The position numbers and the translations under genes were made by a program. Shown piece after piece: positions 5,210 through 21,778 of a stretch of 32,000 nt of DNA (the stretch's first letter is position 1; the number at the start of each line of letters is the position of its first letter). The notes beneath the pieces were generated by a model. That model ran no database searches and had not been told where the DNA came from. It worked only from the letters and a program-made list of their open reading frames with translations. The stretch is from Geotalea uraniireducens Rf4 (GTDB lineage Bacteria > Desulfobacterota > Desulfuromonadia > Geobacterales > Geobacteraceae), in the NCBI RefSeq assembly GCF_000016745.1, contig NC_009483.1, positions 3,060,001 through 3,092,000 of the forward strand, given 5' to 3'.

Positions 5210-5562
5210 GCTGTGGCACGCGCCTTTCTCTATGACACTCTGTCGGTGGCGAATTAACACCATTTCATAATGGGAAAACCATGCCACTTTCTTCTCCGCG
5301 GCATACAACTGCAAAAACAAAAGGTTCGTGGCATTCGGGCATAACCGGAATTTTGCGGTGGGGACGACATTTCGTCTCTAGCGTGATATTTCGTCTCTGT
5401 TCGGAGGAATCACCTTTATTTCAATCGGCTGACCGGCAGCCAGATGCAGGTCCCGTTGCGGGAAAGGAATGGCGATACCCGCTTCAGCGAGCCGCCCGGT
5501 GATGCGGTGCCGGATGTCGCTGCAGACCACGAGACTGTTTATCGCGGGATCCATTTCGATCC

Positions 5563-5571
5563 AGAAATAGG
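5563..5571. repeat. Left copy of the 9-bp target-site duplication AGAAATAGG
   Basis: Identical 9-mer at 5791-5799, directly abutting the two terminal inverted repeats. Confidence 0.7.
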
Positions 5572-5790
5572 CAGCGTTGTCCGGTTTGGTTTTTGCTTAC
5601 GTCCCGTAGGGACAGAATACTGGTAGCCGGGGAATTCATTCCCCGGTCATCCAGGCGAAATATCATCACGTCACGTACGTGACGTGGGGAAATATAGCAT
5701 CTCATCCGGGGGATGAATCCCCCGGCTACATTCGAACGCCCCTAATGGGGCTTAACAACCTTGATGCACAAACCAAACCGGACAACGCTG
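5572..5790. mobile_element. 219-bp MITE-like non-autonomous element
   Basis: Perfect 21-bp terminal inverted repeats: CAGCGTTGTCCGGTTTGGTTT at 5572-5592 and its reverse complement at 5770-5790. Flanked by direct 9-bp repeats. No ORF inside. Removing the element plus one repeat copy restores the MscS reading frame (..TFTAYFWIE..). The interior is a symmetric series of hairpins. Confidence 0.65.
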
Positions 5791-5799
5791 AGAAATAGG
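5791..5799. repeat. Right copy of the 9-bp target-site duplication AGAAATAGG
   Basis: Identical to 5563-5571. Confidence 0.7.
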
Positions 5800-5983
5800 C
5801 GGTAAAGGTGAGCGAGCTGTCGGCGAAGTTTTCGAACACCAGAGTGCGCCGCCGAAGATCATGACCCCTGCCTACCGGGCCGACACGCCGGAGCCCAAGG
5901 TCGTGCCGCGGGAGAAGTGGTATGAGCCGCCGGCGCAGAAAGCTGAATAAGCTCAGAACAGGCTGACCACTGTCAGCTCCGGA

Positions 5984-6304
5984 TCAGCCGGGGCCAACGG
6001 TATCCGCCACGGCCCTGATGAAGGCGTCCCCGTTGACAGCCCGCCGTACCGCACTGGTGGCGACCGTTTCAACCCCGATCACCCCGAACCCGTCGACGAT
6101 TTTCTTTATCCGGACGAGCGCCTCCATGGCCCGCTGCCAGGCGGCTTCCGCAATGGTGTTATCCCGGGCGAGCCCTTCGCCAAGGCGCACCGTTGCCTTC
6201 TCATCGTCCAGAACCCGGAACTTTCCCTGCAGGTCCGCTTCCACCACGATGCAGCGGATGGAATTCGTGCCGATGTCGATGGCTGCCAATCTCCGGTTTC
6301 TCAC
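5984..6304 (-). pseudogene. ppx: Exopolyphosphatase (Ppx/GppA family), N-terminal 106 codons only
   Basis: MRNRRLAAIDIGTNSIRCIVVE...VATSAVRRAVNGDAFIRAVADTVGPG* carries the Ppx/GppA N-terminal ASKHA phosphate-1 motif (DIGTNS). It stops where family members continue for several hundred more residues. GTG start at 6302-6304 overlaps the CHAD gene's TGA as a GTGA overlap. Confidence 0.65.
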
Positions 6305-7194
6305 AGCGCGCTCCTTAACCGCTCCCCGATCTTCTCCGGTGACATGGTGTCCAGCATGCCGGTGAACTCGGCAAAAAGCCCTTCCCTGCGAGTGGCAATG
6401 GCGTTGAGGACGGTCTTCCCGGTCCCGCCGGCCAGCTTGGCATCCCGGACGATGCCGGCAAAGACATCCAGGTCATGCATCCGTCCGAGGACATCCTGAT
6501 ACGCCTTGAGCCTGTCACAGAGTTCCGGAAAACCGGCGCCGAAGAGGCCCTCCAGTATCTCGGCCCGGTAACGGAAGTGCTTGACGGCGATCCGCAGGCG
6601 GTGCTGGGCTTCGATCTCCCCCGCCCGGCGCGCTTGAGGCACCAGTTCCATGACCGCGGAGAGGCCGGCATCGATGGCTTGCCGGGCAAAGACCGACAGG
6701 GGAACAAAAGGATCGACCGAAATGCCGGATGCGAAAAGGGATGGCGCGCTCACGACCCGCAGATACCCGCGCCGCAACGCCCACGGCGCGAATTCCCGCA
6801 GGGCCGCACGCAGCCGCTTGAGCTCTTTTTTCCGCTCCACCCGGAAAGAATCCTGCACGTGCGCGAGCTCCGCGCGGTAGGGATCGCCGAACTCTTCTGC
6901 CAGGGACGTGAAGAAAAGAAGCGCCTCGTCGGTGTTGCGGATCGCGCCCAGCGCGCGCGTTACCCGGCGAAAACTCTTGCCGAGAGGGGCAATTTCGGCA
7001 GGGGGATAACAGGAGGCGAAGAGCGCAAGGCCTTCGCGCAAACGTCGGGATGCCACCCGGAGGTCGTGGATGTCCTCGGCATCGGCTGTTGCAAGCGCCT
7101 TGTCCCGGCGCGCAAAAAAGTCGTCACCCCGTTCGGAGAGGAGGAGCCGGCACGCAATCCAGAGCGGCGTCGCGCCCTCGACCTGCGCCTTCAT
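6301..7194 (-). CDS. CHAD domain-containing protein
   Basis: 297-aa all-helical ORF with the repeated CHAD signatures DIHDLRVASRRLRE and HRLRIAVKHFRYRAE. ATGA overlap with the upstream gene at 7191-7194. Confidence 0.8.
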   Translation of the reverse strand: MKAQVEGATPLWIACRLLLSERGDDFFARRDKALATADAEDIHDLRVASRRLREGLALFASCYPPAEIAPLGKSFRRVTRALGAIRNTDEALLFFTSLAEEFGDPYRAELAHVQDSFRVERKKELKRLRAALREFAPWALRRGYLRVVSAPSLFASGISVDPFVPLSVFARQAIDAGLSAVMELVPQARRAGEIEAQHRLRIAVKHFRYRAEILEGLFGAGFPELCDRLKAYQDVLGRMHDLDVFAGIVRDAKLAGGTGKTVLNAIATRREGLFAEFTGMLDTMSPEKIGERLRSAL

Positions 7195-7544
7195 CCCCGT
7201 TTCCCTCTCCCCTTCCCCTTGCGCCGGTCCTGGGCACTCACGACCTGCTCCGCAAGCTCTTCAATCAGACCGTCGATTTCCTTCAGGTCCTTGAGCCGCC
7301 CCTTGGCCTGCTTCACCTTGAGGCTGTGGATCTCGCGAAGCCAATTGGGCGCCTCGCCCCTGAGGGTCCCGACAGGAACGGCGGCAAGATGGCTGAGGAT
7401 CGTCTCGATCTCCCCTTCCCGGCGCAGGATGAAGCTTTCCCCCACGTCGCGCACCACCTCCCGGAGATGCTTCAGCTCGCGGACCAAATCCTCGCGTGCC
7501 GCTCCGTTGCCGCCATGATTGTTGTTTCTGGGCTCCCCCCCCAT
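7191..7544 (-). CDS. Hypothetical coiled-coil protein with a Lys/Arg/Gly-rich C-terminal tail
   Basis: Track ORF 7191..7592. I prefer the ATG at 7544 (MGGEPRNNNHGG...), 1 nt after the upstream TGA (7546-7548). It ends ..SAQDRRKGKGRGKRG*. No family recognised. Confidence 0.5.
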   Translation of the reverse strand: MGGEPRNNNHGGNGAAREDLVRELKHLREVVRDVGESFILRREGEIETILSHLAAVPVGTLRGEAPNWLREIHSLKVKQAKGRLKDLKEIDGLIEELAEQVVSAQDRRKGKGRGKRG

Positions 7545-7545
7545 G

Positions 7546-8226
7546 TCAGATCCCCATAAGCCCTTCGACCCGGGCCGTGATTTCCCCGGCAACGGAGCAG
7601 ATCGAGCGGTTGCCGTTCACTGCATTGAAGCCGTACTCCTGCTGCATCAAAGTGAACTCCTTCTGGATGAGCCGCTGATAGCGTATGAAGCTGTCGAAGA
7701 TGTCGCGTGAAAGCCCCAGGTCCATACCGGCCTCCCAGTAGTCGAGCGTGGCGTTCTTGCGAAAATTCCGCTCCACCAGTTGCGAGGGGCTTACCCGCAG
7801 ATAGATCACCAGGTCCGGCACCAGCGCGAGACCGTAAAGGGACCGGACCCAGTCGCGATCCGCCCCCCGCACGATATCCCTCGCCATGAGCGTGTAAATG
7901 TAGCGGTCGGCGAGCACGATGAACCCTGCCCTCAGCGCCGGGATAATCCGGTTTTCCAGCTGGTCGGCGAAGTCGGTGGCGTAAAAGAGGCTCCGCGTTA
8001 TCTCGCCGAGGACGTTTCCCTGCTTGGCTTCCTGTAATTCTTCCGAAACCAGGGTCGAGCGCCGCAACCCCACGTCCACCGTGGCGTGTCCCCTCCCCTC
8101 CAGGTAATCCTTGAGCAACGCCATCTGGGTCGAGCGGCCGGAGCCGTCCGCCCCCTCGATGACGATCAGCTTCCCGGCAAGCTGGCTGGTGTCGACGCCG
8201 GGAAGTCCTTCTCCGTAAAAGTTCAT
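7546..8226 (-). CDS. Thymidylate kinase-like P-loop protein, Walker A Lys replaced by Arg
   Basis: 226 aa. P-loop VIEGADGSGRST (canonical Tmk is EGxxGxGK[ST]T), plus a DRY motif (LADRYIYT). Clear paralog of the adjacent 8279..8962 product (shared ..YWEAGMDLGLS.. vs ..YHEAGMDLGLS..). GAGGA RBS lies upstream of the ATG at 8226. Confidence 0.7.
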   Translation of the reverse strand: MNFYGEGLPGVDTSQLAGKLIVIEGADGSGRSTQMALLKDYLEGRGHATVDVGLRRSTLVSEELQEAKQGNVLGEITRSLFYATDFADQLENRIIPALRAGFIVLADRYIYTLMARDIVRGADRDWVRSLYGLALVPDLVIYLRVSPSQLVERNFRKNATLDYWEAGMDLGLSRDIFDSFIRYQRLIQKEFTLMQQEYGFNAVNGNRSICSVAGEITARVEGLMGI

Positions 8227-8278
8227 CCAATTCCTCGCAATTCAGGCTGACAGGCCTTTAAATCATTCTTCATCCTTA

Positions 8279-8962
8279 TCACAAGGATTTCCAGCGATAG
8301 GTCGGCAAGTCGAAGGCGCCGGCGACGAGATCGCGTACTACCTTCTGCTGATCTTCGACCGTGGCCGACCCGTCAATGGTCACGAAGCTGCAATCATCCC
8401 GCATGGCAAGATACTCGCGATAGATCCGCTCCTGAAAGAGCCGGAAACTCTCCTGGGGATCAGCGGAAAGCCCCAGGTCCATTCCGGCTTCGTGGTACTT
8501 GAGCTGGGGTCTGCCGGCAAGGATTCGCGAAAGGGCTACGGGAAGGGGGGTATCGAAGAACAGGGTCAGGTCCGGGCGACGGGCGAACTCGTACAGGCTG
8601 CGCAGCCAGGTGCAGGAGCATCCCCGGACGGCGTCCCGGGCGAAGGCGGTGTAAAAGTACCGGTCGCAGAGGACCAGGTAGCCGGCCTTGAGCAGCGGCA
8701 GTATCTGACGTTCATACCGGTCGGCAAAATCCGCTGCGTGGATGAGGCTAAAGGTGGTGGGGGTGAGGAGGTGCCTCTTCTTCCCCTTGCTGGTCGCTTT
8801 CTTGACGATGACCGACGAGTTCCACTCGGTGAAAAAAACCTTGAGTCCCCGCAACTCCAGCCAGCGTTTGAGGAGATAGAGCTGAGTCGATTTACCCGAG
8901 CCATCGAGTCCTTCGACAGCGACCAGCTTGCCGGGAAGCTCCGTGAACATGTCGCTTTTCAT
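8279..8962 (-). CDS. Thymidylate kinase-like P-loop protein, canonical Walker A
   Basis: 227 aa. AVEGLDGSGKSTQ P-loop and a DRY motif (LCDRYFYT). ATGA overlap with the upstream HhH gene at 8959-8962. Confidence 0.7.
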   Translation of the reverse strand: MKSDMFTELPGKLVAVEGLDGSGKSTQLYLLKRWLELRGLKVFFTEWNSSVIVKKATSKGKKRHLLTPTTFSLIHAADFADRYERQILPLLKAGYLVLCDRYFYTAFARDAVRGCSCTWLRSLYEFARRPDLTLFFDTPLPVALSRILAGRPQLKYHEAGMDLGLSADPQESFRLFQERIYREYLAMRDDCSFVTIDGSATVEDQQKVVRDLVAGAFDLPTYRWKSL

Positions 8963-9486
8963 CGGGCGAGAACCCTCTTCAGCGATTTTCGCGCCTTTTT
9001 GAGCCCCCGGCCGATATCCGCCAACCCGGCATCGGCGAGGGCGGCAAGTCGTTTCTCGGCCTTGGCCAACCCTTTACCGGCCTTTTTCACCCTGGTGTCC
9101 AGCTTCCCCTCCACCTTCTCCAGTGAACTGATTACCTTCAGGATCTCCTTTTCCACTTTCCTGCCGGTCTTGCCGACGGCTTCCTGGGCAAAGCTGTCCC
9201 GAACCCGCAGAGCAACACCCTGGACCTGCTCCTTCAGAATGGCCGCGCTTCGCTTCAGATTCTCCACCTTCTGGGCTCTGGTCGTCTGCGCCTCGCCCAC
9301 CAGTTGACCTGCCTGCTCGACGATCGAGGTGACCAGGCGCGGGTTTATGCCCGGAATCTTTTTCAGCCCATCCTCGCCCGCTGCGGCCACCTTGGCAAAC
9401 GTGTCGTAGCCCGCCTCGACCAGGCGTCCGGACAGGACCTCCCCCACCCCTCTGAGCTTCTGCAGCTCACTCAACTTCTTTTTCAT
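8959..9486 (-). CDS. Helix-hairpin-helix protein with a long Lys-rich coiled-coil C-terminal region
   Basis: 175 aa. The N-terminal LQKLRGVGEVLSGRLVEAGYDTFAKVAAAGEDGLKKIPGINPRLV reads as two HhH motifs (GVG.. and IPGI..). The remainder is a heptad-like, K/R/A/E-rich helix ending KKARKSLKRVLAR. Confidence 0.6.
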   Translation of the reverse strand: MKKKLSELQKLRGVGEVLSGRLVEAGYDTFAKVAAAGEDGLKKIPGINPRLVTSIVEQAGQLVGEAQTTRAQKVENLKRSAAILKEQVQGVALRVRDSFAQEAVGKTGRKVEKEILKVISSLEKVEGKLDTRVKKAGKGLAKAEKRLAALADAGLADIGRGLKKARKSLKRVLAR

Positions 9487-9525
9487 GCACGCTCTCCGTC
9501 ATGGGATTCAAAATCACGATCTGCG

Positions 9526-10029
9526 CTATCCGATAACAATCTCATCCGGTTTCAGCAGCTTCTTCCCCACCGCTGCCCATTTGAGGGTGGCCGGCGCCTG
9601 GAGCGCCGCCGGGTCGATAACCAGCTTGACACCAACGCCTTTCTTCAGATTGAAACCTCCCGGAAGGGAGAGTAGTGAAGAGATGACCTGACTCAGGTCA
9701 GGCTCATGGCCCACGAGCACCAATTCCTGAACAGTCGGAAAGGCGTCTAGCACTTTACGTAGCGCTACCATGCCGAACCCCGGCGCGAGCTCATCCGTCA
9801 CTTGCAGGGAACCGTCATAGGACAGGGTTTCCGCCAGGATATCCGCAGTCTGGACCGCCCTTATGAGCGGACTGGTGAGGATGAGGTCGGGGTTTACCTT
9901 TTTTTGCAGCAACGTCCGGGCAGTCTTCCGGATTAAGTCCCGGCCTTCAGGGGTGAGATAGCGCTGTTCTTCGGGAACCTCAGCGTTCCTCTCGATGGCC
10001 GCTGCGTGACGTACGATATAGAGTTTCAT
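9526..10029 (-). CDS. sixA: Phosphohistidine phosphatase SixA (histidine phosphatase superfamily)
   Basis: 167 aa. MKLYIVRHAAA (RHG-type motif), TSPLIRAVQTA, LVGHEPDLS. Confidence 0.75.
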   Translation of the reverse strand: MKLYIVRHAAAIERNAEVPEEQRYLTPEGRDLIRKTARTLLQKKVNPDLILTSPLIRAVQTADILAETLSYDGSLQVTDELAPGFGMVALRKVLDAFPTVQELVLVGHEPDLSQVISSLLSLPGGFNLKKGVGVKLVIDPAALQAPATLKWAAVGKKLLKPDEIVIG

Positions 10030-10053
10030 GGCGCCTTTCCTGACACTCCTTTA

Positions 10054-10269
10054 TTAACCAATGCTCTTAATTTCAGGTTCCGGCTTCCTTCTTTCCGGCC
10101 CTTTGTAATCGGTCGTAAATCCCACTATTTGATTTCGTCTGATCTCTAACCATCCCTCAGCGCACTGGATGGCTGCAATCCTGTTTGACCTCATCAATTC
10201 GACAATTTTGGAGGCGCTAACGGTATCTTTCTTGCCATCTGTATAGATCACCGTTAGTTCGATAAACAT
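10054..10269 (-). CDS. Small hypothetical protein (71 aa)
   Basis: MFIELTVIYTDGKKDTVSASKIVELMRSNRIAAIQCAEGWLEIRRNQ..GPERRKPEPE. Tightly packed between the flanking genes. Reminiscent of small Geobacter-type proteins but not confidently recognised. Visibly more AT-rich than its neighbours. Confidence 0.5.
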   Translation of the reverse strand: MFIELTVIYTDGKKDTVSASKIVELMRSNRIAAIQCAEGWLEIRRNQIVGFTTDYKGPERRKPEPEIKSIG

Positions 10270-10298
10270 GCTAATTCCTCCATGACCATCTTGCCCGG

Positions 10299-10988
10299 CT
10301 ATTTCAGGACAAAGTCGGCGATGGTTCTGGCAATCCGCGCGTTCCTGGCCTTGCCGTTATTGAAAATCATGTGGTAGAGGAGCGGGTCGCTCTCGGCTGC
10401 GTCCAGGAGTTTGCGGATTATCTTGTCCCGTTCTTTCTGCTGGTCCACGACGAGGATTTCAGCTTCCTGTATTGGTATGTTCATCCGCCGGGCTACGGAG
10501 TGCACCTTGAACCCCTGTTCAGCAAACAGCCGAATATGGAAACAGTTCTTCATGGTCTTCGTGATGATGGCCGCCCCCAGGCCTACGAAAATGGCGTTGC
10601 CGGCCGTAGCAAGCGACACGACCTGCTCACAGAGGAGCCGGTAGTAGTCAGCGTCGCTCTTCCATTTCGGAGAGAGGGTGGCAAACATGTCATCAAGCCA
10701 GCGAGGCTTGTGCCCCAGGGAAAGCATGACCTCTTCCGGGATTTTATGCTCTTTGGCCACTGCATCGAGGAGTGAAATGTCCACTATCAGCCACTCTTCG
10801 CCGGTCATCTGTTCAACTAACTTTTTCAGCTCCTCCGCAATCGGGTATGCCTCGCAACCGAACTCCCTGGAAATGGTTATGGTCGGTTTCAGCGGAGCAC
10901 CCTCTACCAGCGACTTGGCGCGGTTACTGAGCTCGTGGTACGCCCTCAGCCTCTGTTCCACCGATGGGGTAAGCACTGTAACTGGCAT
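10299..10988 (-). CDS. Cytidylate kinase-like family protein with a degenerate P-loop
   Basis: Track ORF 10299..11021. I prefer the ATG at 10988, preceded by AAGGAGG. ITISREFGCEAYPIAEELKK aligns with the family's ITISRexGSGG..ia..La block, but the glycine-rich loop is lost. Confidence 0.6.
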   Translation of the reverse strand: MPVTVLTPSVEQRLRAYHELSNRAKSLVEGAPLKPTITISREFGCEAYPIAEELKKLVEQMTGEEWLIVDISLLDAVAKEHKIPEEVMLSLGHKPRWLDDMFATLSPKWKSDADYYRLLCEQVVSLATAGNAIFVGLGAAIITKTMKNCFHIRLFAEQGFKVHSVARRMNIPIQEAEILVVDQQKERDKIIRKLLDAAESDPLLYHMIFNNGKARNARIARTIADFVLK

Positions 10989-11062
10989 GTTAACCTCCTT
11001 CAGGCAGGATTCGCGCCCCAATTCCCGTTAGCGAGGGCGGGCGCACCTGATTAATTTAATTT

Positions 11063-11091
11063 AATTAAATCACAGGTTTTATCATTGTCAA
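11063..11091 (-). promoter_or_regulatory. Candidate sigma70-type promoter in an AT-rich tract upstream of the cmk-like gene
   Basis: On the minus strand: TTGACA (11086-11091), a 17-nt spacer, then TTAATT (11063-11068). Embedded in a (TAATT)x3 tract that is highly unusual for this GC-rich window. The -10 element is weak. Confidence 0.3.
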
Positions 11092-11196
11092 TCTTGAGAA
11101 GAAGTCGGCAATGCCCCTGTTCATCACCGCTGCCAGTGGCTCACCGACATGGTGCGCCTCCCATATGCGTGATATTCGCTGTCACACAGATACAGA

Positions 11197-12021
11197 TCAA
11201 AAAACCTCCGGGATGAACTTGAACGGGTAATCTGGCGACTTGTACTTCTGGTCTTTCTGCCGTTTCGGCAGTTTCACCTTTTCGCGCGGCGCCTCCTCGT
11301 AAGGAATCTTGCCGAGAAGGTGGGTAATGAGATTCAGCCTCGCGCGTTTCTTGTCGTCCGATTTCGCCACGTACCACGGGGCCCACGCCGTGTCGGTCGA
11401 TGCAAACATTTCGTCGCGCGCCTTGGTATAGTCGTCCCAGCGGCTGTAGGACTGGAGGTCCATGGGCGATAGTTTCCAGATCTTGCGCCCGTCGTCGATA
11501 CGCGCTTCGAGCCGGCGGGTCTGCTCATCAGGATTAACCTCGAGCCAATACTTGAGGAGGATGATGCCGGATTCGACCATCAGTTTCTCGAAGAGCGGCA
11601 CAACTCCCAGGAAGCGCCTGGCCTGCTCCTCTGTGCAGAAGCCCATGACCCGCTCGACCCCGGCCCGGTTGTACCAGCTGCGGTCAAAGATGACCACCTC
11701 GCCTGCCGCCGGCAGATGCGGCAAATAGCGCTGGGCATACATCTGCGTCTTCTCCCGCTCCGTCGGGGCGGGGAGCGCCACCACGCGAAATACCCGCGGG
11801 CTGATCCGTTCGGTGATCGCCTTGATCGTCCCCCCCTTCCCTGCGCCGTCGCGCCCTTCGAAGATCACACAGACCTTGAGCCCCTTGTACTTGACCCACT
11901 CCTGGAGCTTGACCAGCTCCACGTGAAGCTTCGCAAGTTCCTGTTCATAATCCTTGGTTTTCAACTTTTCACCGGATTTCTCATTTTCCCCTTTACCCTT
12001 TCCCTTTTTTGCACCTTTCAT
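11197..12021 (-). CDS. ppk2: Polyphosphate kinase 2 (single-domain PPK2)
   Basis: 274 aa. Walker A FEGRDGAGKGGTIK, Walker B-like IFDRSWYNRAGVERVMGF, and a lid region (..WKLSPMDLQSYSRWDDY..). Confidence 0.9.
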   Translation of the reverse strand: MKGAKKGKGKGENEKSGEKLKTKDYEQELAKLHVELVKLQEWVKYKGLKVCVIFEGRDGAGKGGTIKAITERISPRVFRVVALPAPTEREKTQMYAQRYLPHLPAAGEVVIFDRSWYNRAGVERVMGFCTEEQARRFLGVVPLFEKLMVESGIILLKYWLEVNPDEQTRRLEARIDDGRKIWKLSPMDLQSYSRWDDYTKARDEMFASTDTAWAPWYVAKSDDKKRARLNLITHLLGKIPYEEAPREKVKLPKRQKDQKYKSPDYPFKFIPEVF

Positions 12022-12154: not shown

Positions 12155-14032
12155 TCAGAAAAATTCCCGCAGATTTTCGTCGATCCCTTTGAGTGTTTCG
12201 TACCAGAACTCCCGGGCAGCCTCGACTCTGTCCCGGTCGAACTTTTCGAGCCAATCGCCCAGCCGGGGGTCCTTCTCGTGGTCGACGTCCCTTTTCCGTT
12301 TCAGGAAGGTATGCAGATAGTCGATGTTACTCTTCGATTCCCAGAAAATCGGGCTGTTTCGGCTGTGCAGGCGGCTCGCGAGCACGTCGATGGCACGCAG
12401 GAAGCTCTCCTTGCAACCGTACAGCGAGCCCACGGCCTCGGGGAGCATCTCCTCCGCCCACCCGCGGTGAAAACGGCAGGTGCCGAGATTGTCGAGAATG
12501 AGTTCCTTCTTCATCCGATCCGCGCACATTCTCCCCAGGACCCGGGGCGGGATGAAGTCGTAGCTGTAGATCATGTAGTACTTCCCCATGATGGCCATCG
12601 GGGCCAGCGCGCCGGCGACCCAGTACTGGTTGGGGACCATCCATCCCCGCCGGCTGAAGGCGATGTATACAAGGCGGTCATGGAGCGACACACCTTTCTC
12701 CCGTGAATGGATCCGGCTCCACTTGCGCACCCCTTCTCCGAAATCGAGAATACCGCGCCGCTCCAGGATCGCGTCGATCAGTTCGCAGCCGAGATCGGCA
12801 TTGTGCATGGAATCGCTTACCACATCGAAACCCGCCACCTCCCAGCGCGGCAGCCTCGTGACCCCGAGCTCTTCACAGGTCAACAGTTTCGCGTCCAGAA
12901 GGTCCATCAGCCATGCCAGCACCCCCCCGCCGGAAATGGCGTCAAAACCCATGGCGTCGCAGTGGTGGTTGAGTTTTTCCGCCGCCCGCTGGTCGAAGAT
13001 GCCGCACAGGGGGCCCATGGTCTGGTATGGTTCGTAGTCCTTCTTGTACATGCCGCTCATCTTCTTGCAGACGGCGGCGCAGGGTTCGCCGCAGGTGGCC
13101 TGCTGTTTGGGTGTGATGGTCTCTTCGTTGAACTGCCTGAGGTAGTGATCGATCACGAAGTTTTGATGCAGGGCCTGGCGCTCCTCTTCCGTCCAGAAAA
13201 TGGTGCGGTAGTTGAAGGCCAGGATCTTCCCCCCCATGGTGGCGTAGTTGACGCCGAAGGTGCCGCCGGTATGAAGCTTTTCGTCGTAACGATACTTGCT
13301 GGTCGCCTCCATGTCCTTTTGCATCAGGCGCAGGTTGTACTTGTTCCGGAACCATTCGTCGGCCACCGTGTGGTCGCGGAAGTCCTCGTTTACCATCGTG
13401 CCGCCGTAGATGATTGCGACGATGCCATGCTCCCGGACCATCGCGCTGCCGAAGCCGCCGCGGCCGGCCCAGGTGTCGACGAAGCTGATCTTTCCCTTGG
13501 TGATGGGGACCGACATGATCCCTCCCACGTCGGTATGCATGGCCGCCGGACCGGTGACGAGGATGCGCGGATCGTTCGCGTAACGGGAGCCGAACATCTC
13601 GTAGACCTTGTCCGTCAGGGAGTAAACCCCCGTGCGCCCCGCCTTCCAGATGGACTCCACGTCAACGGGGACCACCTCGACCTCGATCTCTTCACCGTGG
13701 TTGCGGTTCAGGCAGAGGACCGACGGGACGGGGGCCTTCCCCACCAGGCTGAGCATGTTGATCCCCAGGTTGTCGAACACAAGCCCCGCGCCCCCCATGG
13801 AGCTGATGTAATACCCCTGCCAGCAGGGGGAAAAGCCGGTCACCACCAGCCGGTTCGAGCCCGGGAAGATGGAGCCGGCGAAGATGCCGACGCCGAAATT
13901 GAGGCTCCGGTACTCTGCGGCAAGATGGATACCGAGGTCCACCGGCCCGAAATAACGGTCGAAGCCGTACTTTCGAGTCTTGTAAAATCCGGTCGCCGGA
14001 TCGACCAATAGCACTCTCTGGAACATGTTCAT
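12155..14032 (-). CDS. aor: Aldehyde:ferredoxin oxidoreductase family protein (tungstopterin type), divergent
   Basis: 625 aa. AOR N-terminal domain (RVLLVDPATG...GPVDLG...GSNRLVVTG), a Cys cluster (TCGEPCAAVCKK plus LGTCRFH) and DAISGGGVLAWLMD. GAGGTG RBS lies upstream of the ATG at 14032. Confidence 0.8.
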   Translation of the reverse strand: MNMFQRVLLVDPATGFYKTRKYGFDRYFGPVDLGIHLAAEYRSLNFGVGIFAGSIFPGSNRLVVTGFSPCWQGYYISSMGGAGLVFDNLGINMLSLVGKAPVPSVLCLNRNHGEEIEVEVVPVDVESIWKAGRTGVYSLTDKVYEMFGSRYANDPRILVTGPAAMHTDVGGIMSVPITKGKISFVDTWAGRGGFGSAMVREHGIVAIIYGGTMVNEDFRDHTVADEWFRNKYNLRLMQKDMEATSKYRYDEKLHTGGTFGVNYATMGGKILAFNYRTIFWTEEERQALHQNFVIDHYLRQFNEETITPKQQATCGEPCAAVCKKMSGMYKKDYEPYQTMGPLCGIFDQRAAEKLNHHCDAMGFDAISGGGVLAWLMDLLDAKLLTCEELGVTRLPRWEVAGFDVVSDSMHNADLGCELIDAILERRGILDFGEGVRKWSRIHSREKGVSLHDRLVYIAFSRRGWMVPNQYWVAGALAPMAIMGKYYMIYSYDFIPPRVLGRMCADRMKKELILDNLGTCRFHRGWAEEMLPEAVGSLYGCKESFLRAIDVLASRLHSRNSPIFWESKSNIDYLHTFLKRKRDVDHEKDPRLGDWLEKFDRDRVEAAREFWYETLKGIDENLREFF

Positions 14033-14070
14033 ACGTCACCTCGGCTTGTTCTATTATCCAAAAAGAAGCG

Positions 14071-14105
14071 TTTCTCGCGCAAAGCCGCAAAGAACGCAAA
14101 GAAAT
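14071..14105. repeat. 35-bp intergenic repeat, (CGCAAAG)x3 orientation
   Basis: TTTCTCGCGCAAAGCCGCAAAGAACGCAAAGAAAT. Its reverse complement recurs at 14662-14696 with one mismatch. Confidence 0.85.
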
Positions 14106-14115
14106 TCAGGATGTT

Positions 14116-14490
14116 TCATGTTGTTTCCTGGCCTTCCAGAGAAGAAACTGTGATGCTTTCCTTTTGTATCCCCATCTGCCTTTCGACAACTGGCTGGGAA
14201 TAATGGTTGCCCGTGGAGAGGCACTTTACCGGGCAGACCTCGACGCACAGGTTGCAGATGCAGCACTTAAGCCGGTCGATCTGCCACGCCTTGCTCTCCT
14301 TGGTGACCGTGATGGCGTAGGTCGGACAGCGCCTGCCGCACATGCCGCAGAAGATGCACCTGTCGATGGCGTTCTCTATCCTCCCCCGGGTGATGGCGGT
14401 AAAAATCCGCTCCCGTTGGGGATACATGAGGGTGGCCGGCCCTGTGACCAGGTTTTTAGTTACCGTTTTCGTCATCGTGAAAATTTTCAT
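14116..14490 (-). CDS. 2x[4Fe-4S] ferredoxin-like subunit (EchF/NuoI/HycF-like)
   Basis: 124 aa. Two CxxCxxCxxxCP motifs (CIFCGMCGRRCP and CCICNLCVEVCP). Its ATG (14488-14490) overlaps the TGA of the large-subunit stub. Confidence 0.8.
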   Translation of the reverse strand: MKIFTMTKTVTKNLVTGPATLMYPQRERIFTAITRGRIENAIDRCIFCGMCGRRCPTYAITVTKESKAWQIDRLKCCICNLCVEVCPVKCLSTGNHYSQPVVERQMGIQKESITVSSLEGQETT

Positions 14491-14645
14491 GGTGGCGTGT
14501 CCTCACCTTCCGTGCAGCTGATGCACGGGTCCAGGGTTAATATGATGTTCGGCACGTCGGCGACCTCCGATCCCTTCAGCACCTTGATCATGGCCGGAAT
14601 GTTGCTGAAGGTGGGGACGCGTACACTAATGGTTTTGGTTTGTGT
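14487..14645 (-). pseudogene. C-terminal stub (52 codons) of a group 4 [NiFe]-hydrogenase large subunit (EchE/NuoD-like)
   Basis: Hand translation: TQTKTISVRVPTFSNIPAMIKVLKGSEVADVPNIILTLDPCISCTEGEDTPP*. It contains the C-terminal DPCxxC Ni-Fe ligand motif. It is preceded by an in-frame TAG (14646-14648) and has no plausible start. Only 88 bp separate it from the small-subunit gene. Confidence 0.65.
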
Positions 14646-14661
14646 CTACATAAGATTTCGC

Positions 14662-14696
14662 ATTTCTTTGCGTCCTTTGCGGCTTTGCGCGAGAAA
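14662..14696. repeat. 35-bp intergenic repeat, (CTTTGCG)x3 orientation
   Basis: ATTTCTTTGCGTCCTTTGCGGCTTTGCGCGAGAAA is the reverse complement of 14071-14105 with one mismatch, at 14674. Confidence 0.85.
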
Positions 14697-14736
14697 TTGC
14701 ATTTTGGGTTCGACCTCTTCGGATATTTCACGGCCC

Positions 14737-15180
14737 TTACGGCCACCGTCCGGTCTTTTTCCGCTGCGCATATTTCTCTTCAAGGATGTCGCACGCCTTG
14801 AGCACGCCGTCGATGATCGCTTCCGGCCGGGCGGCGCACCCCGGCACATACACGTCCACCGGCAGCACCTTGTCGACCCCGCCCAGCACGTTGTAACAGT
14901 CCTGGAACACGCAGCCGGACGTGGCGCAGATCCCCACCGCCACGATGACCTTCGGATTCGGCATCTGGTCGTAGAGATTCTGCAGAACCTGTCTGCTCTT
15001 CTCGTTGACCGATCCGGTCACCGCCAGGATGTCGGCATGCTTCGGGTTGCCGGTGCTCATGATGCCGAACCGTTCCAGATCATACAGGGGCGTCAGGCTG
15101 GCGATCAGCTCGATGTCGCAGCCGTTGCAACTGGTCGCATTGTAATGGAGCACCCATGGTGAACGTTTGAACCACCCCAT
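14737..15180 (-). CDS. Group 4 hydrogenase small subunit / NuoB-like (EchC/MbhJ-like)
   Basis: 147 aa. SCNGCDIE, NPKHADILAVTGSV, AVGICATSGCVF, VDVYVPGCAARPEAIIDG. The Cys ligands of the proximal [4Fe-4S] cluster are present. Confidence 0.85.
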   Translation of the reverse strand: MGWFKRSPWVLHYNATSCNGCDIELIASLTPLYDLERFGIMSTGNPKHADILAVTGSVNEKSRQVLQNLYDQMPNPKVIVAVGICATSGCVFQDCYNVLGGVDKVLPVDVYVPGCAARPEAIIDGVLKACDILEEKYAQRKKTGRWP

Positions 15181-15198
15181 AATTTTTTCTCCGCGTTC

Positions 15199-16080
15199 TC
15201 ATCGCATCAGGCTGAGAACGATGATATTCGACACCCCGGCCACGGCCGTAAACAGCCATGCACTCAGGAAGGTGAGCTGCCACTTGAAGCGGGCATAGTT
15301 CATGTCGATGAAAATCTCGAAAAGAAAGGTCGCCATGGCCATGACGAGGGCCAGCCAGGGAGTAAAGGCAAAGAAGAGGTAGATCATGCCGAGCAGCAAC
15401 ACGGTTTCATACCAGTGCGCGATCTCGATGAGGGCAAGCGCGGGCCCGACGAATTCGGTGGTGATCCCGCTGACGATTTCCTGGTGAGCGTGATGGGACA
15501 TGGAAAGGTCGAACGGCGACTTTCTGAATTTGATGGTAAGAATGAACAGAAAGCCGGCAAACACCCCGGGCAGAAAAAGGATCAGCGGCGCGTGATGCTG
15601 GGCAATCGTCCCCACCCTGAAGCTTCCAGTAACCTGGTACATACCGACCGCCATGAGGATGACCATCGGCTCATAGGCGACCATCTGGATGATTTCGCGC
15701 TCCGCCCCGAGGTGACTGTAAGGGGAGGCGACACAGTAACCGCCCAGTACGAAGAAGGTTCCTGCCAGGGCCAGGCTGAAGATGATCAGCAGGAGATCGG
15801 CCCCGGCGAAGAAGAGGGCCCCGGAAAACATGGTGAAGAGCAGAAAGAGCACGATGGGAAAATCCTGGAATTTGTTGACGATGATCCGTTCTTTGCGCAA
15901 CAGTTTGAAGACATCATAGAACGGCTGCATCACCGGCGGACCGTAGCGCCCCTGCAGGCGCGCACTCACCTTGCGATCGATCCCGGCCAGCAGCCCACCC
16001 GCAAGCGGTGCGAGCAGCACGAACGCCAGCATCCGTTCGATGATGCTCCAGGACCTTATCAACTCGTAGATGCCGTTCAT
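15199..16080 (-). CDS. NuoH/EchB/MbhM-like integral membrane subunit
   Basis: Track ORF 15199..16095 begins at a GTG. I prefer the ATG at 16080, preceded by AGGAG with a 6-nt spacer. Polytopic; RLQGRYGPPVMQPFYDVFKLLRKE is the NuoH-family signature region. Confidence 0.8.
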   Translation of the reverse strand: MNGIYELIRSWSIIERMLAFVLLAPLAGGLLAGIDRKVSARLQGRYGPPVMQPFYDVFKLLRKERIIVNKFQDFPIVLFLLFTMFSGALFFAGADLLLIIFSLALAGTFFVLGGYCVASPYSHLGAEREIIQMVAYEPMVILMAVGMYQVTGSFRVGTIAQHHAPLILFLPGVFAGFLFILTIKFRKSPFDLSMSHHAHQEIVSGITTEFVGPALALIEIAHWYETVLLLGMIYLFFAFTPWLALVMAMATFLFEIFIDMNYARFKWQLTFLSAWLFTAVAGVSNIIVLSLMR

Positions 16081-16230
16081 ATGAGGCTCCTGCACTACGT
16101 CGAAACCTTTGAACCGCCCGCTCCCTCCGGTCGCTCAAGACGCGAAGGACGCCAGGAAAATCCAAGGCGTTTTGGTTTTAGAAACCTTAAAAAAGGATTT
16201 TTTCCAAGGTCCTTGCAATCTGCATTTCTC

Positions 16231-16267
16231 CCCCTCTCCCTAACCCTCTTCCACCAGGGGAGAGGGG
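16231..16267. repeat. C-tract/G-tract palindromic (REP-like) hairpin
   Basis: CCCCTCTCCC (16231-16240) pairs with GGGAGAGGGG (16258-16267), giving a 10-bp stem and 17-nt loop. A second hairpin follows: CCCCTCC (16278-16284) with GGAGGGG (16292-16298). Confidence 0.6.
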
Positions 16268-16290
16268 ATTACAAGCGCCCCTCCTTCGAT

Positions 16291-16309
16291 GGGAGGGGGT
16301 GGGGGAGGG
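16291..16309 (+). other. G-quadruplex-forming motif GGGAGGGGGTGGGGGAGGG
   Basis: Four G-runs of at least 3 separated by 1-nt loops on the plus strand, which is the template strand for the minus-strand operon. Confidence 0.5.
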
Positions 16310-16378
16310 TGCATGGCAGTGATTTCATGCCCAAATGATAAGTGCAATTTTCTAACCGGACGATGCTGGTTTTTTTCC

Positions 16379-16397
16379 TTTCTTTGCGTTCTTTGCG
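16379..16397. repeat. Partial (19-bp) copy of the CTTTGCG repeat family
   Basis: TTTCTTTGCGTTCTTTGCG is identical to positions 2-20 of the reverse complement of 14071-14105. Confidence 0.7.
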
Positions 16398-16466
16398 TCT
16401 TGCCTAAGGGCACCTACTTCTGGTTGCGGTTACAGCGGTTTTTGCAAGGCGCAGGTAACATGCGCT

Positions 16467-18365
16467 TCACAAGGCTGCCACCCCGAACATGATGAAGAGC
16501 AACGTCAACGAAACAAAAATCCCGACATTGCACCACCGTTCTTCCCCGAAGTACTTCGTCAGGTAGTAGTTCCTGAGCTCGATTGTCTGCGTCGAAGCCA
16601 TGGCCCCTTCAAAGGTCACATTGTCGATATTCCCACCGCCAAGGTAGGTGCCGACCCGTTTGTAGTGCTTGTTGATGAAGGCATAGTAGAGGAGGCCGAG
16701 GGGAAGGATAATCAGCAGGCCCACCATGATGATGAACACGATGAGGACATTGAAGGTATCGACAACGGGCGTCTTCCCGAACATTTCCAGGAGATAGGGG
16801 TTGATGACGTGGAAGGAGATGAACGGAAAGCCGAGGCAGACTGCCACCGTGGCAACGGCCAGGATGCCCAGGGTGATCCATTCCCAGCGGCTCACCCGGT
16901 GCTCCAGAACCTCGGTTACGCCATGCTTGATGGAGATGATCTTGCCCATCCACTTGGTCCAGAAGAAGACCGTGGCGGCGCTGCCGTAGGCCAGGATGAT
17001 CGCCATGGCCGGATTGCTCTCGACAAAGGCCTTGAGGGTAATGAACTTGCTGATGATCATCCCGAACGGCGCCAGAAACATCCCGGCCATGCCGGTCATC
17101 ATGACCGCAGTGAGCTTGGGCAGGCGCATGATCAGGTAGTCCATGTCCTCGATGTCGCGGCTGTCCAGCTTGTATTCGATGATGCCCACACAAAGGAAGA
17201 GGAGCGACTTCGCCACCGCATGGAAGATGATCAGCAGGATCGCGGACCACACCGCCGCATCGGTGTTCACCCCCGCACAGGCGACGATGAGCCCCAGATT
17301 GGAGATGGTGGAATAGGCGAGCACTTTTTTGGCATTGCTCTGGGAAATGGCGATCAGTGCCGTGATGAGGAAGCTCACCCCGCCGATGAGGGTGAGCATC
17401 TTGGCCGCCGCGGTGTGCTCCATGACCGGCGCGACCCGCAGGATGAGGTAGACCCCGGCCTTGACCATCGTGCTCGAATGGAGCAGCGCCGACACCGGCG
17501 TGGGCGCCACCATGGCGCCGGTCAGCCAGGAGGAAAACGGGAACTGCGCCGACTTCACCAGGCCGGCAAAGGCAAGGCAGACGGCAGGGAGCAGCACCAG
17601 CCCCTTGTCGAGCCGAAGCATTTTGTCCAGTTCCATGATCCCTGAGGATGAGTAGAGGCAGACAAGGCCAACGGCGAACACCACCCCGCCGATCAGGTTC
17701 ATGTTCAGCGCCCTGAAAGCGCTCTCACGGGATGCCTCGTCGTCCCGATAGCCGATCAGCAGGAACGAGCAGACGGTGGTTATCTCCCAGAAGAAGTAGA
17801 GCCACATGAGGTTGTTGGAAAAGACGATGCCGAACATGGCGGAGAGAAAGAGGTACATGAGGAACGCGAAGTATCTGCGCCTGTCTTTTACTTCCTTGTA
17901 GTGCTCGTGATATTCGGGGAGGTAGCCGATGGCGTAGAGGCAGATGGCGCTGCCGATGATGCCGACAATGAGCGCCATGATGATGGAGAGCTTGTCCACG
18001 AACAGGCTGTGCTCGACCTGCATCCCGTGTCCGGAGGTGAACTCGAAAACCACCATGATGATCGACTGGACGACCACCAGAAGGACCGGGAGATATCTCT
18101 TCGCCCTGACGGATACATACACGATGAAGACGGCAACGAAGAGCTCGACAAGGAGCATGCCGATGTCGATGAGCGGGCTCTCCAGGTGAAAATACGCCGG
18201 CCCCCGGTCAAGATTGGTAACGAGGAGATAGATCGGCACGGCGCAGAGAGTGATATTGACGCACGCGCCGACAGCCTTTCTTGCGACAAGGCTGAGCGGC
18301 GGCACCAGCGCCAGGAAGGAAACTGCCAGGGGGAACACGATCAGAAAAATCAAAGCGTTCATCAT
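16467..18365 (-). CDS. NuoL/EchA/MbhH-like proton-conducting antiporter-type membrane subunit
   Basis: Track ORF 16467..18392 (641 aa). Many TM helices and NuoL/Mrp-type motifs (WEITTVCSFLLIGY, SALLHSSTMVKAGVYL). Candidate starts are 18392, 18380 and 18365; the ATG at 18365 has a GAGG 6 nt upstream. Confidence 0.8.
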   Translation of the reverse strand: MMNALIFLIVFPLAVSFLALVPPLSLVARKAVGACVNITLCAVPIYLLVTNLDRGPAYFHLESPLIDIGMLLVELFVAVFIVYVSVRAKRYLPVLLVVVQSIIMVVFEFTSGHGMQVEHSLFVDKLSIIMALIVGIIGSAICLYAIGYLPEYHEHYKEVKDRRRYFAFLMYLFLSAMFGIVFSNNLMWLYFFWEITTVCSFLLIGYRDDEASRESAFRALNMNLIGGVVFAVGLVCLYSSSGIMELDKMLRLDKGLVLLPAVCLAFAGLVKSAQFPFSSWLTGAMVAPTPVSALLHSSTMVKAGVYLILRVAPVMEHTAAAKMLTLIGGVSFLITALIAISQSNAKKVLAYSTISNLGLIVACAGVNTDAAVWSAILLIIFHAVAKSLLFLCVGIIEYKLDSRDIEDMDYLIMRLPKLTAVMMTGMAGMFLAPFGMIISKFITLKAFVESNPAMAIILAYGSAATVFFWTKWMGKIISIKHGVTEVLEHRVSRWEWITLGILAVATVAVCLGFPFISFHVINPYLLEMFGKTPVVDTFNVLIVFIIMVGLLIILPLGLLYYAFINKHYKRVGTYLGGGNIDNVTFEGAMASTQTIELRNYYLTKYFGEERWCNVGIFVSLTLLFIMFGVAAL

Positions 18366-18445
18366 CTCGACCTCATCCATGGTGGTTAACATCCAAAATG
18401 AGAGGCGCCAATGGCATTCATCGATATCTGAAATTTATTTTATTA

Positions 18446-18454
18446 ACTATACCA
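18446..18454 (-). promoter_or_regulatory. Candidate extended -10 promoter (TGGTATAGT) upstream of the Ech-like operon
   Basis: The minus strand reads TGGTATAGT inside the only AT-rich patch of the pgm to nuoL-like spacer. The -35 element is poor. Confidence 0.25.
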
Positions 18455-18508
18455 CACCAAATCGGCTTTCCCATGGCAAGGGTAAATCGTAGCCACAAAG
18501 GAACTTAC

Positions 18509-20167
18509 TCAGGCTCCAGCCTCAGCTAACGCGGCGTTGACGATGGCCACGGCCTCTTCCTGAATCCTCTGTAGATGTTCCTCCCCCAGAAAACTCTCCG
18601 CATAAATCTTGTAGATGTCCTCCGTGCCTGACGGACGCGCCGCAAACCACCCGTTCTGCGTCAGTACCTTAAGCCCCCCGATGTCGGCGTCATTCCCCGG
18701 CGCCCGGGTCAGTTTTGCCGTGATCGGCTCTCCGGCCAGCTCCTGCGCCGTCACCAGCTCCGGAGAGAGTTTCTTCAGGACCTTCTTCTGCTCCGCTGTC
18801 GCCGGGGCATCGATCCGGGTGTACGCCGGACTGCCGAAGCGGCTTTCGAGCTCATGGTACTGTTCGGCGGGGTCCCTGCCGGTCCTGGCGGTCATTTCGC
18901 AGGCGAGGAGATCCATGATGATGCCGTCCTTGTCGGTCGTCCAGACCGTGCCGTTTCTTCTGAGAAACGAAGCGCCGGCGCTCTCCTCGCCGCCGAATCC
19001 GAAGGAGCCGTCGATAAGCCCGTCCACAAACCACTTGAATCCGACGGGCACCTCAACTACCCTTCTCCCGAGCGCTGCGCCGACCCTGTCGATCATGGAC
19101 GTGGATACGAGGGTCTTGCCGATGGCGGCGTCCCTGCTCCACCCGTCCCTGTTCCGGAAGAGATACCAGACGGCGGCGGAGAGATAGTGGTTCGGGTTCA
19201 TGAGACCTTCCCTTTTTGTCACTATGCCGTGCCGGTCGACATCCGTGTCATTGCCGCAGGCGATGTCGAAACGGTCCTTCATCTGGATGAGGCTTGCCAT
19301 GGCAAAGGGGGACGAGCAGTCCATCCGGATCTTGCCGTCCTTGTCCAGGGTCATGAAGGAAAACGTGGGATCGACCATGCGATTGACCACGTCCAGTTTC
19401 AGGCCATAGCGCTCGGCGATGGGGTCCCAGAATGCAACCGCTGCCCCGCCGAGCGGGTCTATGCCGATCCTGATCCCCGCAGCTGCTATGAGCTCCATGT
19501 CGATGACGTTTCCGAGGTCGTTGACATAGGGTGAGACGTAGTCATGACGGTGGATGCACTCCGCCCCGATCGCCCTCGGGAACGGTATTCTCCTGACATC
19601 CTTTAGCCCCTGGGCCAGCAGTTCGTTGGCCCTCTTTTCGATGACCGTCGTGGTTGCCGTATCCGCCGGACCGCCATGGGGCGGATTGTACTTGAACCCG
19701 CCGTCTTCAGGGGGGTTGTGGGACGGGGTGACGACCACGCCGTCGGCCCGGTTCGTCCTCTCCCCGCGCTCGCGATTCCAGGTGAGGATGGCATGGGATA
19801 TCACCGGGGTCGGCGTATACCCGAGACCATCCTGGATGAACACCTCCACGTCGTTCGCGGCAAAGACCTCGATGGCACTCGCAAAGGCCGGTTCGGACAG
19901 GGCATGCGAATCCATGCCGAGGAAGAGCGGCCCCTCGATCCGCTGCGCCTTCCGGTACTCGCAGATGGCCTGGCTGACGGCAAGGATATGCGCCTCGTTG
20001 AAGCTGCTTTTCAGCGACGACCCCCGGTGGCCCGAGGTGCCGAAGGCGACCCGCTGCGCCGGGTCGGTGACATCCGGCGCATGGATGTAATAGGCCGAGA
20101 TGAGCCTCGGAATGTTCGCCAGCATCGACCGTGGCGCCGGCTTCCCGGCAAATTCATGCGCATCCAT
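18509..20167 (-). CDS. pgm: Phosphoglucomutase, alpha-D-glucose phosphate-specific
   Basis: 552 aa from the ATG at 20167 (20170 is TTG). GTSGHRG, active-site loop [15 protein letters not shown], and GGEESAG near the C-terminal domain. Confidence 0.9.
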
Positions 20168-21769: not shown

Positions 21770-21778
21770 GGTTTTTGT

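Follow-up and report, generated by a model that had tools for sequence, protein, structure and literature searches.

Two-subunit polyphosphate kinases of the PPK3 type are a recent addition, defined solely in a thermoacidophilic archaeon, where a heteromeric enzyme was traced to two genes that had both been annotated as thymidylate kinases (Hofmann et al., J Biol Chem 2026, PMC12995831; preprint 2024, bioRxiv 10.1101/2024.08.28.610084). The Sulfolobus acidocaldarius operon, saci_2017-2021, reads sixA-ppx-cPPK3-rPPK3-CHAD, with Saci_2019 as the catalytic subunit (cPPK3) and Saci_2020 as the regulatory subunit (rPPK3); the proteins show polyphosphate (polyP) kinase activity and no deoxythymidine monophosphate (dTMP) kinase activity, and the reaction is reversible, with the synthesis of ATP out of ADP plus polyP strongly favoured (PMC12995831). 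PPK3 was presented as the enzyme of organisms without PPK1 and PPK2, both being absent from the majority of its carriers, which also encode a canonical dTMP kinase elsewhere in the genome (PMC12995831). Here we describe a related gene cluster on the minus strand of a 32,000-nucleotide stretch of the Geotalea uraniireducens Rf4 chromosome (NC_009483.1, positions 3,060,001 to 3,092,000; hereafter the window), analysed between window positions 5984 and 12021 from a list of open reading frames (ORFs) and searches with Pfam and NCBIfam hidden Markov models (HMMs). We put at about 80% the probability that positions 5984-10029 constitute a bacterial PPK3-type polyphosphate operon, centred on two adjacent thymidylate kinase (Tmk)-like proteins, here called A and B in order of transcription.

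Three comparisons bear on the identity of this pair. Searched against the PDB with phmmer, A found its best match in STK_15430 of Sulfolobus tokodaii (2plr/5h70; 197 bits, E 1.6e-57, where the top-scoring canonical dTMP kinase reached 58 bits), and B matched the same cPPK3 homologue with 145 bits (E 2.5e-41), against 45 bits for the best canonical structure. Pairwise alignment then separated the two subunits: A is 47% identical to Saci_2019 (195 bits), and B is 33-35% identical to Saci_2020 and the S. tokodaii rPPK3 (112-127 bits), two proteins to which A scores only 65-67 bits. In a neighbour-joining tree of 32 sequences, with two canonical dTMP kinases (partial sequences) as outgroup, the PPK3 clade was set apart from the canonical enzymes with 100/100 bootstrap support; bacterial A proteins grouped with archaeal cPPK3 (78/100) and bacterial B proteins with archaeal rPPK3 (77/100). 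Because structure matches, pairwise scores and tree agree, we assign 8279-8962, on sequence grounds, as the cPPK3 orthologue and 7546-8226 as the rPPK3 orthologue. STK_15430 itself was deposited as a 'probable thymidylate kinase' (PDB 2plr/4nzy/4rzx/5h70) and has been reinterpreted as a cPPK3 homologue; it is the closest relative of both A and B with a solved structure and has the motifs EWNSS, KKK..LLTP, DFxDRYE and DRYIYT in common with A, although it comes from an archaeal thermophile and shares only 47% identity.

The likeness to Sulfolobus extends to the arrangement of the locus. Both systems comprise two adjacent paralogues of the dTMP kinase fold, c followed by r, orthologous by score and tree; both have SixA, Ppx and CHAD companions; and in both the basic residues are kept in c and lost in r, the latter being degenerate at a catalytic motif. 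They differ in gene order, which here is SixA-HhH-c-r-small protein-CHAD-Ppx (HhH, helix-hairpin-helix) as against sixA-ppx-c-r-CHAD, and in the presence here of two additional conserved genes. PPK2 is encoded near the window operon, whereas most PPK3 organisms reportedly have neither PPK1 nor PPK2, and the Ppx of the window's relatives is a long type of about 510 amino acids with an HD domain, truncated in this genome. The host, finally, is a mesophilic bacterium, and its enzyme is a predicted one.

From related loci we drew 84 A-type and 80 B-type proteins for alignment. In A the P-loop lysine (K24) is present in 84/84 orthologues, the DRY arginine is kept, R101, K61 and R82 are likewise invariant, and K62, R63, R85, R151 and K155 are conserved as lysine or arginine; the basic residues K61, K62, R63, R82, R85, R151 and K155 also occur in the archaeal cPPK3/STK_15430. 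At the putative cleft positions B carries the non-basic residues Q, G, Q, N and D, a contrast that fits the published polyP cleft, kept in c and not in r (PMC12995831). The positions that bind dTMP in canonical enzymes have been replaced in both proteins: REPGG reads EWNSS in A and GLRRS in B, and F..(D/S)R reads H..DF in A and Y..DF in B, all of them invariant in the 84 and the 80 orthologues, so that the arginine has become phenylalanine in both and the stacking phenylalanine histidine or tyrosine. Canonical Tmk (T. thermophilus 5x7j, A. aeolicus 2pbr) shares with the pair the P-loop kinase fold, the P-loop and DRY/DRF motifs and family PF02223, but at 30-35% identity and 54-71 bits by BLASTP, from a separate clade, in another genomic context and with a different set of residues at the dTMP-binding positions. 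Database names for both PPK3 subunits are nonetheless essentially all 'dTMP kinase' or 'thymidylate kinase'. Against the dTMP kinase equivalog model TIGR00041 (cut-off 83.25) B falls below at 76.9 bits and A passes at 86.8 bits, which means that automated annotation will go on mislabelling the family.

The regulatory candidate departs from its archaeal counterparts in how it has degenerated. B has the P-loop GADGSGRST, with arginine for lysine, keeps DRY, and reads ADQ in place of ADR; across bacterial orthologues the P-loop arginine, the DRY arginine and a glutamine at the R82 position are each present in 80/80. The 'K to R' change noticed in the first-pass annotation is thus real, and it is a hallmark of the bacterial regulatory subunit, not a local mutation. 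Lysine-to-arginine replacement is a classic substitution in P-loop NTPases that inactivates yet leaves nucleotide binding in place, and together with an intact DRY it suggests that B may bind nucleotide without catalysing transfer. The inactivity of archaeal rPPK3 was attributed to loss of the DRX arginine (PMC12995831); Saci_2020 and the S. tokodaii rPPK3 indeed read ADGY where bacterial B keeps ADRY, and the S. tokodaii P-loop likewise carries arginine. Unlike archaeal rPPK3, then, bacterial r keeps the DRY arginine and is degenerate instead in its P-loop, where Lys has become Arg, and at R82, replaced by Gln, which lowers the case for an identical mechanism of inactivation and not that for membership of the PPK3 clade.

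Some relatives encode both parts in one chain, a cPPK3-like followed by an rPPK3-like domain: P0340 (460 aa) and the longer P0350, P0372 and P0401 (650-696 aa). In two of these the r-domain P-loop is fully degenerate, each in its own way, reading GSDYSGHYQ in P0340 and GAHHAGVTH in P0350, and the fusions P0340 and P0350 lend indirect support to physical association of c and r. An HDVGR motif, spotted by eye in the extra C-terminal region of the longer fusions (for example P0350), suggests an HD domain as in long Ppx. The PPK3 authors themselves drew an analogy with class II PPK2, in which an active P-loop kinase module is joined by a degenerate paralogous one (PMC12995831). Those two-domain enzymes (for example P. 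aeruginosa PA3455), with an inactive N-terminal and an active C-terminal domain, belong to another P-loop kinase family (PF03976 as against PF02223), have their modules fused and act on AMP, not ADP.

The pair is widespread. Scanning 185,579 species-level genomes gave at least 590 related stretches, where one genome may give more than one since both subunits match; all counts for 80 loci below refer to the best 80 of these. Most of the 80 are from Verrucomicrobiota, the remaining labels being Terriglobia, Ignavibacteria, Lindowbacteria, Sumerlaeota, Anaerolineales, Goldbacteria, Cytophagia and Desulfuromonadales. In nearly all of them the A and B genes are adjacent and co-oriented in that order, the exceptions being contig ends or loci with no detected B gene, and Ppx, CHAD, SixA, PPK2 or a ROK kinase lies nearby, a varied set that stays within the polyP theme. 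Searched exhaustively with HMMER, 1.84 billion representative proteins yielded 242 clusters (E <= 1e-30), fusions included. Within Geobacteraceae the conserved unit is (SixA)-HhH-cPPK3-rPPK3-small protein-CHAD-Ppx; the CHAD gene holds the same position in relatives, and SixA lies upstream of the HhH gene in most of them and is missing in some. Linkage of the Tmk-like pair with CHAD, Ppx and SixA, which had been put forward from this genome, is therefore kept far outside it.

Neighbourhoods elsewhere show several variants. In most Verrucomicrobiota loci (L008, L009, L011, L014, L019, L026, L029 and others; locus coordinates about 9460-11470) a ROK kinase of about 330 aa comes after rPPK3, and then a short Ppx of about 330 aa. 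This ROK-family kinase scores 235 bits with PF00480, below the glucokinase and polyP-glucokinase cut-offs, and these loci have no CHAD, no SixA and no small helical protein; the PPK3 operon may here take the form of a polyP/sugar-kinase variant. In a Geobacter genome (CP010430; L001 11165-13051) the c-r-small protein series, all that this genome has of the operon, leads into a 628-aa pyruvate kinase (NF011314, 805 bits) and not into CHAD and Ppx, and at L084 15557-17116 a PPDK_N/PEP-utilizers enzyme stands downstream of Ppx. These neighbours deserve notice, since polyP synthesis by Sulfolobus PPK3 in vitro required ATP recycling by phosphoenolpyruvate (PEP) and pyruvate kinase (PMC12995831). 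PPK2-family genes also recur beside PPK3 operons in unrelated lineages (L004 7900-9393; L016 9410-10903; L086 13491-14993; L077 9970-11019; L105 11247-12218), three of them encoding two-domain polyP:AMP phosphotransferases (TIGR03708, 746-757 bits); at L105 a phosphate-selective porin and CorA lie nearby as well. Such recurrence sits badly with the impression given in print, in which PPK3 takes the place of PPK1 and PPK2.

Several points weigh against a PPK3-type operon that works as it does in Sulfolobus. PPK3 activity is deduced here from 47% identity to an archaeal enzyme, and co-transcription from gene overlaps and short gaps. With its DRY arginine kept, bacterial B may retain some activity or nucleotide binding, and the division of labour between c and r could differ. 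PPK2 lies 2.2 kb from the pair, although most PPK3 organisms reportedly lack both PPK1 and PPK2, so that the pair's role in the cell may differ from that of Sulfolobus PPK3.

The alternative that survives best, though we think it unlikely, takes up these points: the pair would be related to PPK3 but do another job in bacteria, passing phosphate from polyP to a different acceptor (GDP, a sugar or a protein), or B would be an active second kinase. The DRY motif of bacterial B, retained throughout in contrast to archaeal rPPK3, speaks for such a reading, and variable neighbours (the ROK sugar kinase of Verrucomicrobiota, the pyruvate kinase of L001, the PEP-utilising enzymes of L084) and the coexistence of PPK2 with the pair point the same way. 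The catalytic candidate argues otherwise, being 47% identical to an assayed enzyme with the shared basic residues retained; so does B, which lacks the basic residues common to A and archaeal cPPK3 and carries in its P-loop a change generally known to inactivate while sparing nucleotide binding.

A second alternative, that of the first-pass annotation, held that the Tmk-like and cytidylate kinase (CMK)-like proteins are nucleoside monophosphate (NMP) kinases making diphosphates, from which PPK2 would make triphosphates with polyP on a CHAD-decorated granule, the whole forming one eleven-gene module. All four proteins do have the P-loop kinase fold, the PPK2 is a bona fide class I type, and no gap from the CMK-like gene through ppx exceeds 52 nt. 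Yet both Tmk-like proteins are orthologous to PPK3 subunits and lack the residues with which dTMP kinases bind the monophosphate, and the Sulfolobus orthologues have polyP kinase and no dTMP kinase activity (PMC12995831); moreover, PPK2 is set apart by a gap of about 200 nt and a terminator-like hairpin, and the PPK2, CMK-like and 71-aa genes are unlinked to the pair in close relatives and in metagenomic CMK-like homologues. We now consider this model very improbable for the window. A weaker form of polyP-driven nucleotide re-phosphorylation is possible in those other lineages where a polyP:AMP phosphotransferase (TIGR03708) stands beside the pair, making AMP-to-ADP-to-ATP relays plausible there.

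The weakest alternative, a housekeeping dTMP kinase, duplicated and lying next to polyP genes by chance, finds some encouragement in the database name and in TIGR00041 scores that pass or nearly pass the cut-off, but it can be set aside as hardly credible given the separate clade (100/100, with two canonical dTMP kinases as outgroup), scores of 45-58 bits to canonical structures against 145-197 to the PPK3 homologue, the replaced dTMP-binding motifs, which argue against the NMP-kinase model too, synteny with Ppx, CHAD and SixA that holds across phyla and in Archaea, and the canonical dTMP kinase that PPK3-bearing organisms carry elsewhere (PMC12995831). Among the ORFs scanned in the 32-kb window there was no further PF02223 gene.

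If the pair is indeed PPK3, cPPK3 and its pseudokinase partner rPPK3 would form a heteromer by analogy with the Sulfolobus alpha2-beta2 enzyme, and this heteromer would reversibly move the terminal phosphate between polyP and ADP/ATP; were the ATP-forming direction favoured here as well, polyP would act as an energy and phosphate buffer. CHAD domains are a polyP-granule-binding family, and the CHAD protein may tether or mark the granule. SixA is a conserved companion, and Ppx, where intact, would provide the hydrolytic exit of polyP, an exit destroyed here after codon 104. For the HhH and small proteins, translationally coupled within the operon, we propose a role as accessories that bind polyP or PPK3, because of their strict synteny, translational coupling and basic character.

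The small protein is encoded directly after B. Neither it nor any of five distant members has a Pfam or NCBIfam family, but a profile built from Geobacteraceae homologues found, in one iteration, full-length relatives in 13/80 loci with E values of 1e-27 to 1e-38. At least seven different labels of phylum or class level are represented among these 13 loci; the gene directly follows rPPK3 in 12, and every context checked was a PPK3 operon. The family is marked by a near-invariant motif, L-K-[VL]-K-P-x-K-G-R-x-K-D-[LI]-K-x-I-D, in which the window protein reads KQAKGRLKD; within the set of locus ORFs KPxKGRxKD is confined to this family, and a second-iteration profile with a motif scan of all locus ORFs revealed no hidden members in the Verrucomicrobiota loci. 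An AlphaFold2 model of moderate confidence has four helices (pLDDT 65) and places the motif in the loop joining helices 3 and 4. Foldseek against the PDB returned nothing below E 0.38 for this model, only generic helical bundles. Kinship with half a CHAD domain or with the tail of the HhH protein was considered and dropped, hhalign giving a probability of 0.5% for both. The Sulfolobus operon is without such a gene, and the list of associated genes in the PPK3 paper does not include one of this type (PMC12995831).

The HhH/coiled-coil protein shares 4 nt (ATGA) with the start of cPPK3 and has a conserved basic GLKKARKSLKRV tail at its end. Its orthologues occur at the same position only in operons of the Geobacteraceae/Desulfuromonadales type (12 loci) and in none from other phyla. 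A bolder reading, which we offer tentatively and regard as possible rather than probable, is that the small protein is a previously unrecognised third component of bacterial PPK3 and the HhH protein a second, Desulfuromonadales-specific polyP-binding partner, in a multi-protein machine with r as a nucleotide-binding sensor of energy charge. The small protein could then act as subunit or regulator through a basic loop that contacts polyP or the cleft of PPK3, or else be an adaptor docking the kinase on the CHAD-coated granule. Bacterial PPK3 would on either count be a multi-protein machine, in contrast to the two-subunit archaeal enzyme.

The organisation of the cluster is consistent with the operon reading (Table 1). 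Ten co-oriented minus-strand ORFs, all real, lie in 5984-12021, and the HMMs bear out the families named beforehand (PPK2, Cytidylate_kin2, SixA, two Tmk-like proteins, CHAD and Ppx); the co-oriented run was thus correctly seen in the first pass, and its total of eleven genes was not, the list given there itself having ten. Junctions read ATGA at 8959-8962 and 7191-7194 and GTGA at 6301-6304, and one base, at 7545, parts stop from start (TGA-c-ATG), exactly as had been described; the chain of overlaps claimed for 9486-5984 is, however, broken by 52 nt (8227-8278) between the two Tmk-like genes. Further upstream of the pair the gaps are 39, 24 and 29 nt, and none exceeds 52 nt from the CMK-like gene through ppx. 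PPK2 is separated from the next gene by about 175-208 nt containing a weak terminator-like hairpin at 11129-11106; a promoter and terminator scan gave fewer hits than shuffled sequence and backs nothing beyond this weak hairpin after PPK2. We regard the cluster as polyphosphate-themed and probably co-transcribed, with PPK2 probably a transcription unit of its own.

Table 1. Features of the window, ordered by position, with lengths and profile matches
Feature	Position	Strand	Length	Matches and motifs
Truncated Ppx, N-terminal fragment	5984-6304	-		PF02541 profile positions 2-85 of 285
CHAD-domain protein	6301-7194	-	297 aa	PF05235 152 bits, profile positions 8-225 of 228
Small basic helical protein	7191-7544	-	117 aa	no Pfam/NCBIfam match
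rPPK3 orthologue (B), predicted non-catalytic regulatory subunit	7546-8226	-	226 aa	PF02223 68 bits
cPPK3 orthologue (A), predicted catalytic subunit	8279-8962	-	227 aa	PF02223 81 bits; GLDGSGKST, EWNSS, DRY
HhH-domain protein with long basic helical tail	8959-9486	-	175 aa	PF14520 HHH_5 40 bits, residues 6-59
SixA-type histidine phosphatase	9526-10029	-	167 aa	TIGR00249 75.3 bits (cut-off 74.5); PF00300
GSU3473-family protein	10054-10269	-	71 aa	NF045719 44 bits (cut-off 40)
Cytidylate_kin2-family (CMK-like) protein	10299-10988 (or 11021)	-	229 aa	PF13189 86 bits
PPK2, single-domain, class I type	11197-12021	-	274 aa	PF03976 325 bits; TIGR03707 357 bits (cut-off 302)
Aldehyde:ferredoxin oxidoreductase	12155-14032	-
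Mrp/complex-I-like membrane module	14116-18392	-
Phosphoglucomutase	18509-20170	-
Glycogen phosphorylase	27615-30209	-

The three genes upstream of SixA fall outside the conserved module. Only where a contig is identical to this strain do the PPK2, CMK-like and 71-aa genes precede the operon, the flanks of close relatives being unrelated; for the 71-aa gene these contigs are L088, L092 and L093. Metagenomic homologues of the CMK-like protein (65-78% identity) have no PPK3 genes beside them, and one has PPK2 1.8 kb downstream. We therefore rejected these genes as a conserved extension of the operon, not being linked to the pair in close relatives or in the metagenome homologues, and with that the proposal that they belong to one module with it; they share the polyP theme at most loosely. 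The CMK-like gene has a GGAGG Shine-Dalgarno sequence before its start ATG, and its product reads FGCEA where relatives carry a glycine-rich loop. Still further upstream, a co-oriented minus-strand run (12155-30209) holds genes of reserve mobilisation and substrate-level phosphorylation, including, beyond those in Table 1, glyceraldehyde-3-phosphate dehydrogenase, a SpoIIAA-like protein, phosphofructokinase, acetate kinase and pyruvate kinase; together with the polyP genes it reads as an 'energy reserve' neighbourhood.

At its downstream end the operon is damaged. The ppx gene keeps the first 104 of about 510-520 codons (6304-5993), followed by two unrelated codons and a stop, where relatives encode a Ppx of 509-520 aa with an HD domain; the complete two-domain ASKHA core of Ppx/GppA (PF02541) is not present in the window fragment. 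With a full-length relative as query, tblastn aligned residues 1-104 only and found no other part of ppx in the 32 kb, and DNA homology to relatives stops at about 5994. The same 106-aa ORF appears in an assembly from an independent read set (L088). A frameshift was discarded as an explanation, no further ppx sequence existing anywhere in the window: the gene is truly truncated, by deletion or rearrangement, and neither frameshift nor sequencing error is involved.

Two further features occupy this region. A 219-bp non-coding element at 5572-5790 (within 5563-5800), single-copy in the window and about 200 bp from the ppx breakpoint, has 25-nt terminal inverted repeats, CAGCGTTGTCCGGTTTGGTTTTTGC, that are 96% complementary, contains nested palindromes and is flanked by a 9-10-bp direct repeat, AGAAATAGG(C); it looks like a miniature inverted-repeat transposable element with its target-site duplication. 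Beyond it, a 58-aa minus-strand ORF (5378-5554) looks like the C-terminus of an MscS-type channel, blastx matching it weakly to the L087 MscS gene, and appears to be a remnant of a mechanosensitive channel gene in the same scar region as the truncated ppx.

The core concept, a two-subunit PPK3 encoded with polyP genes, is thus already published, and the window operon is a bacterial variant of it; the paired Tmk-like/CHAD operon had been proposed as the best candidate for an undescribed system, and its core proves to have been characterised in Sulfolobus (PMC12995831). The variation from the archaeal system lies in four points: the way in which rPPK3 has degenerated, two extra operon proteins, of which one is shared across phyla, the coexisting PPK2, and a truncated ppx. 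In the main text of the published PPK3 study we found no P-loop arginine with a kept DRY, no KPxKGRxKD protein, no HhH protein and no such ppx truncation; the main text of the preprint names neither Geobacter nor Desulfobacterota, supplementary Fig. S19 and Data S1 lying outside our scope. Literature searches for Geobacter polyphosphate with thymidylate kinase, or with polyphosphate kinase/exopolyphosphatase, returned nothing relevant.

These observations place the two-subunit enzyme, so far the property of a thermoacidophile, in Geobacteraceae, metal reducers that are important in the environment and amenable to genetics. By the same token, database entries that go by the name 'dTMP kinase' are mis-annotated in their thousands. 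The partner with an invariant arginine for lysine in its P-loop and the two helical proteins offer concrete handles on the regulation and localisation of PPK3, and strains with intact ppx, set against the strain in which it is truncated, constitute a natural experiment on polyP turnover. The pair is found, moreover, in several hundred stretches from genomes of Verrucomicrobiota, Acidobacteriota and further phyla, often next to genes of the PPK2 family, and this wide distribution implies that polyP-to-ATP buffering through PPK3 may be common among bacteria.

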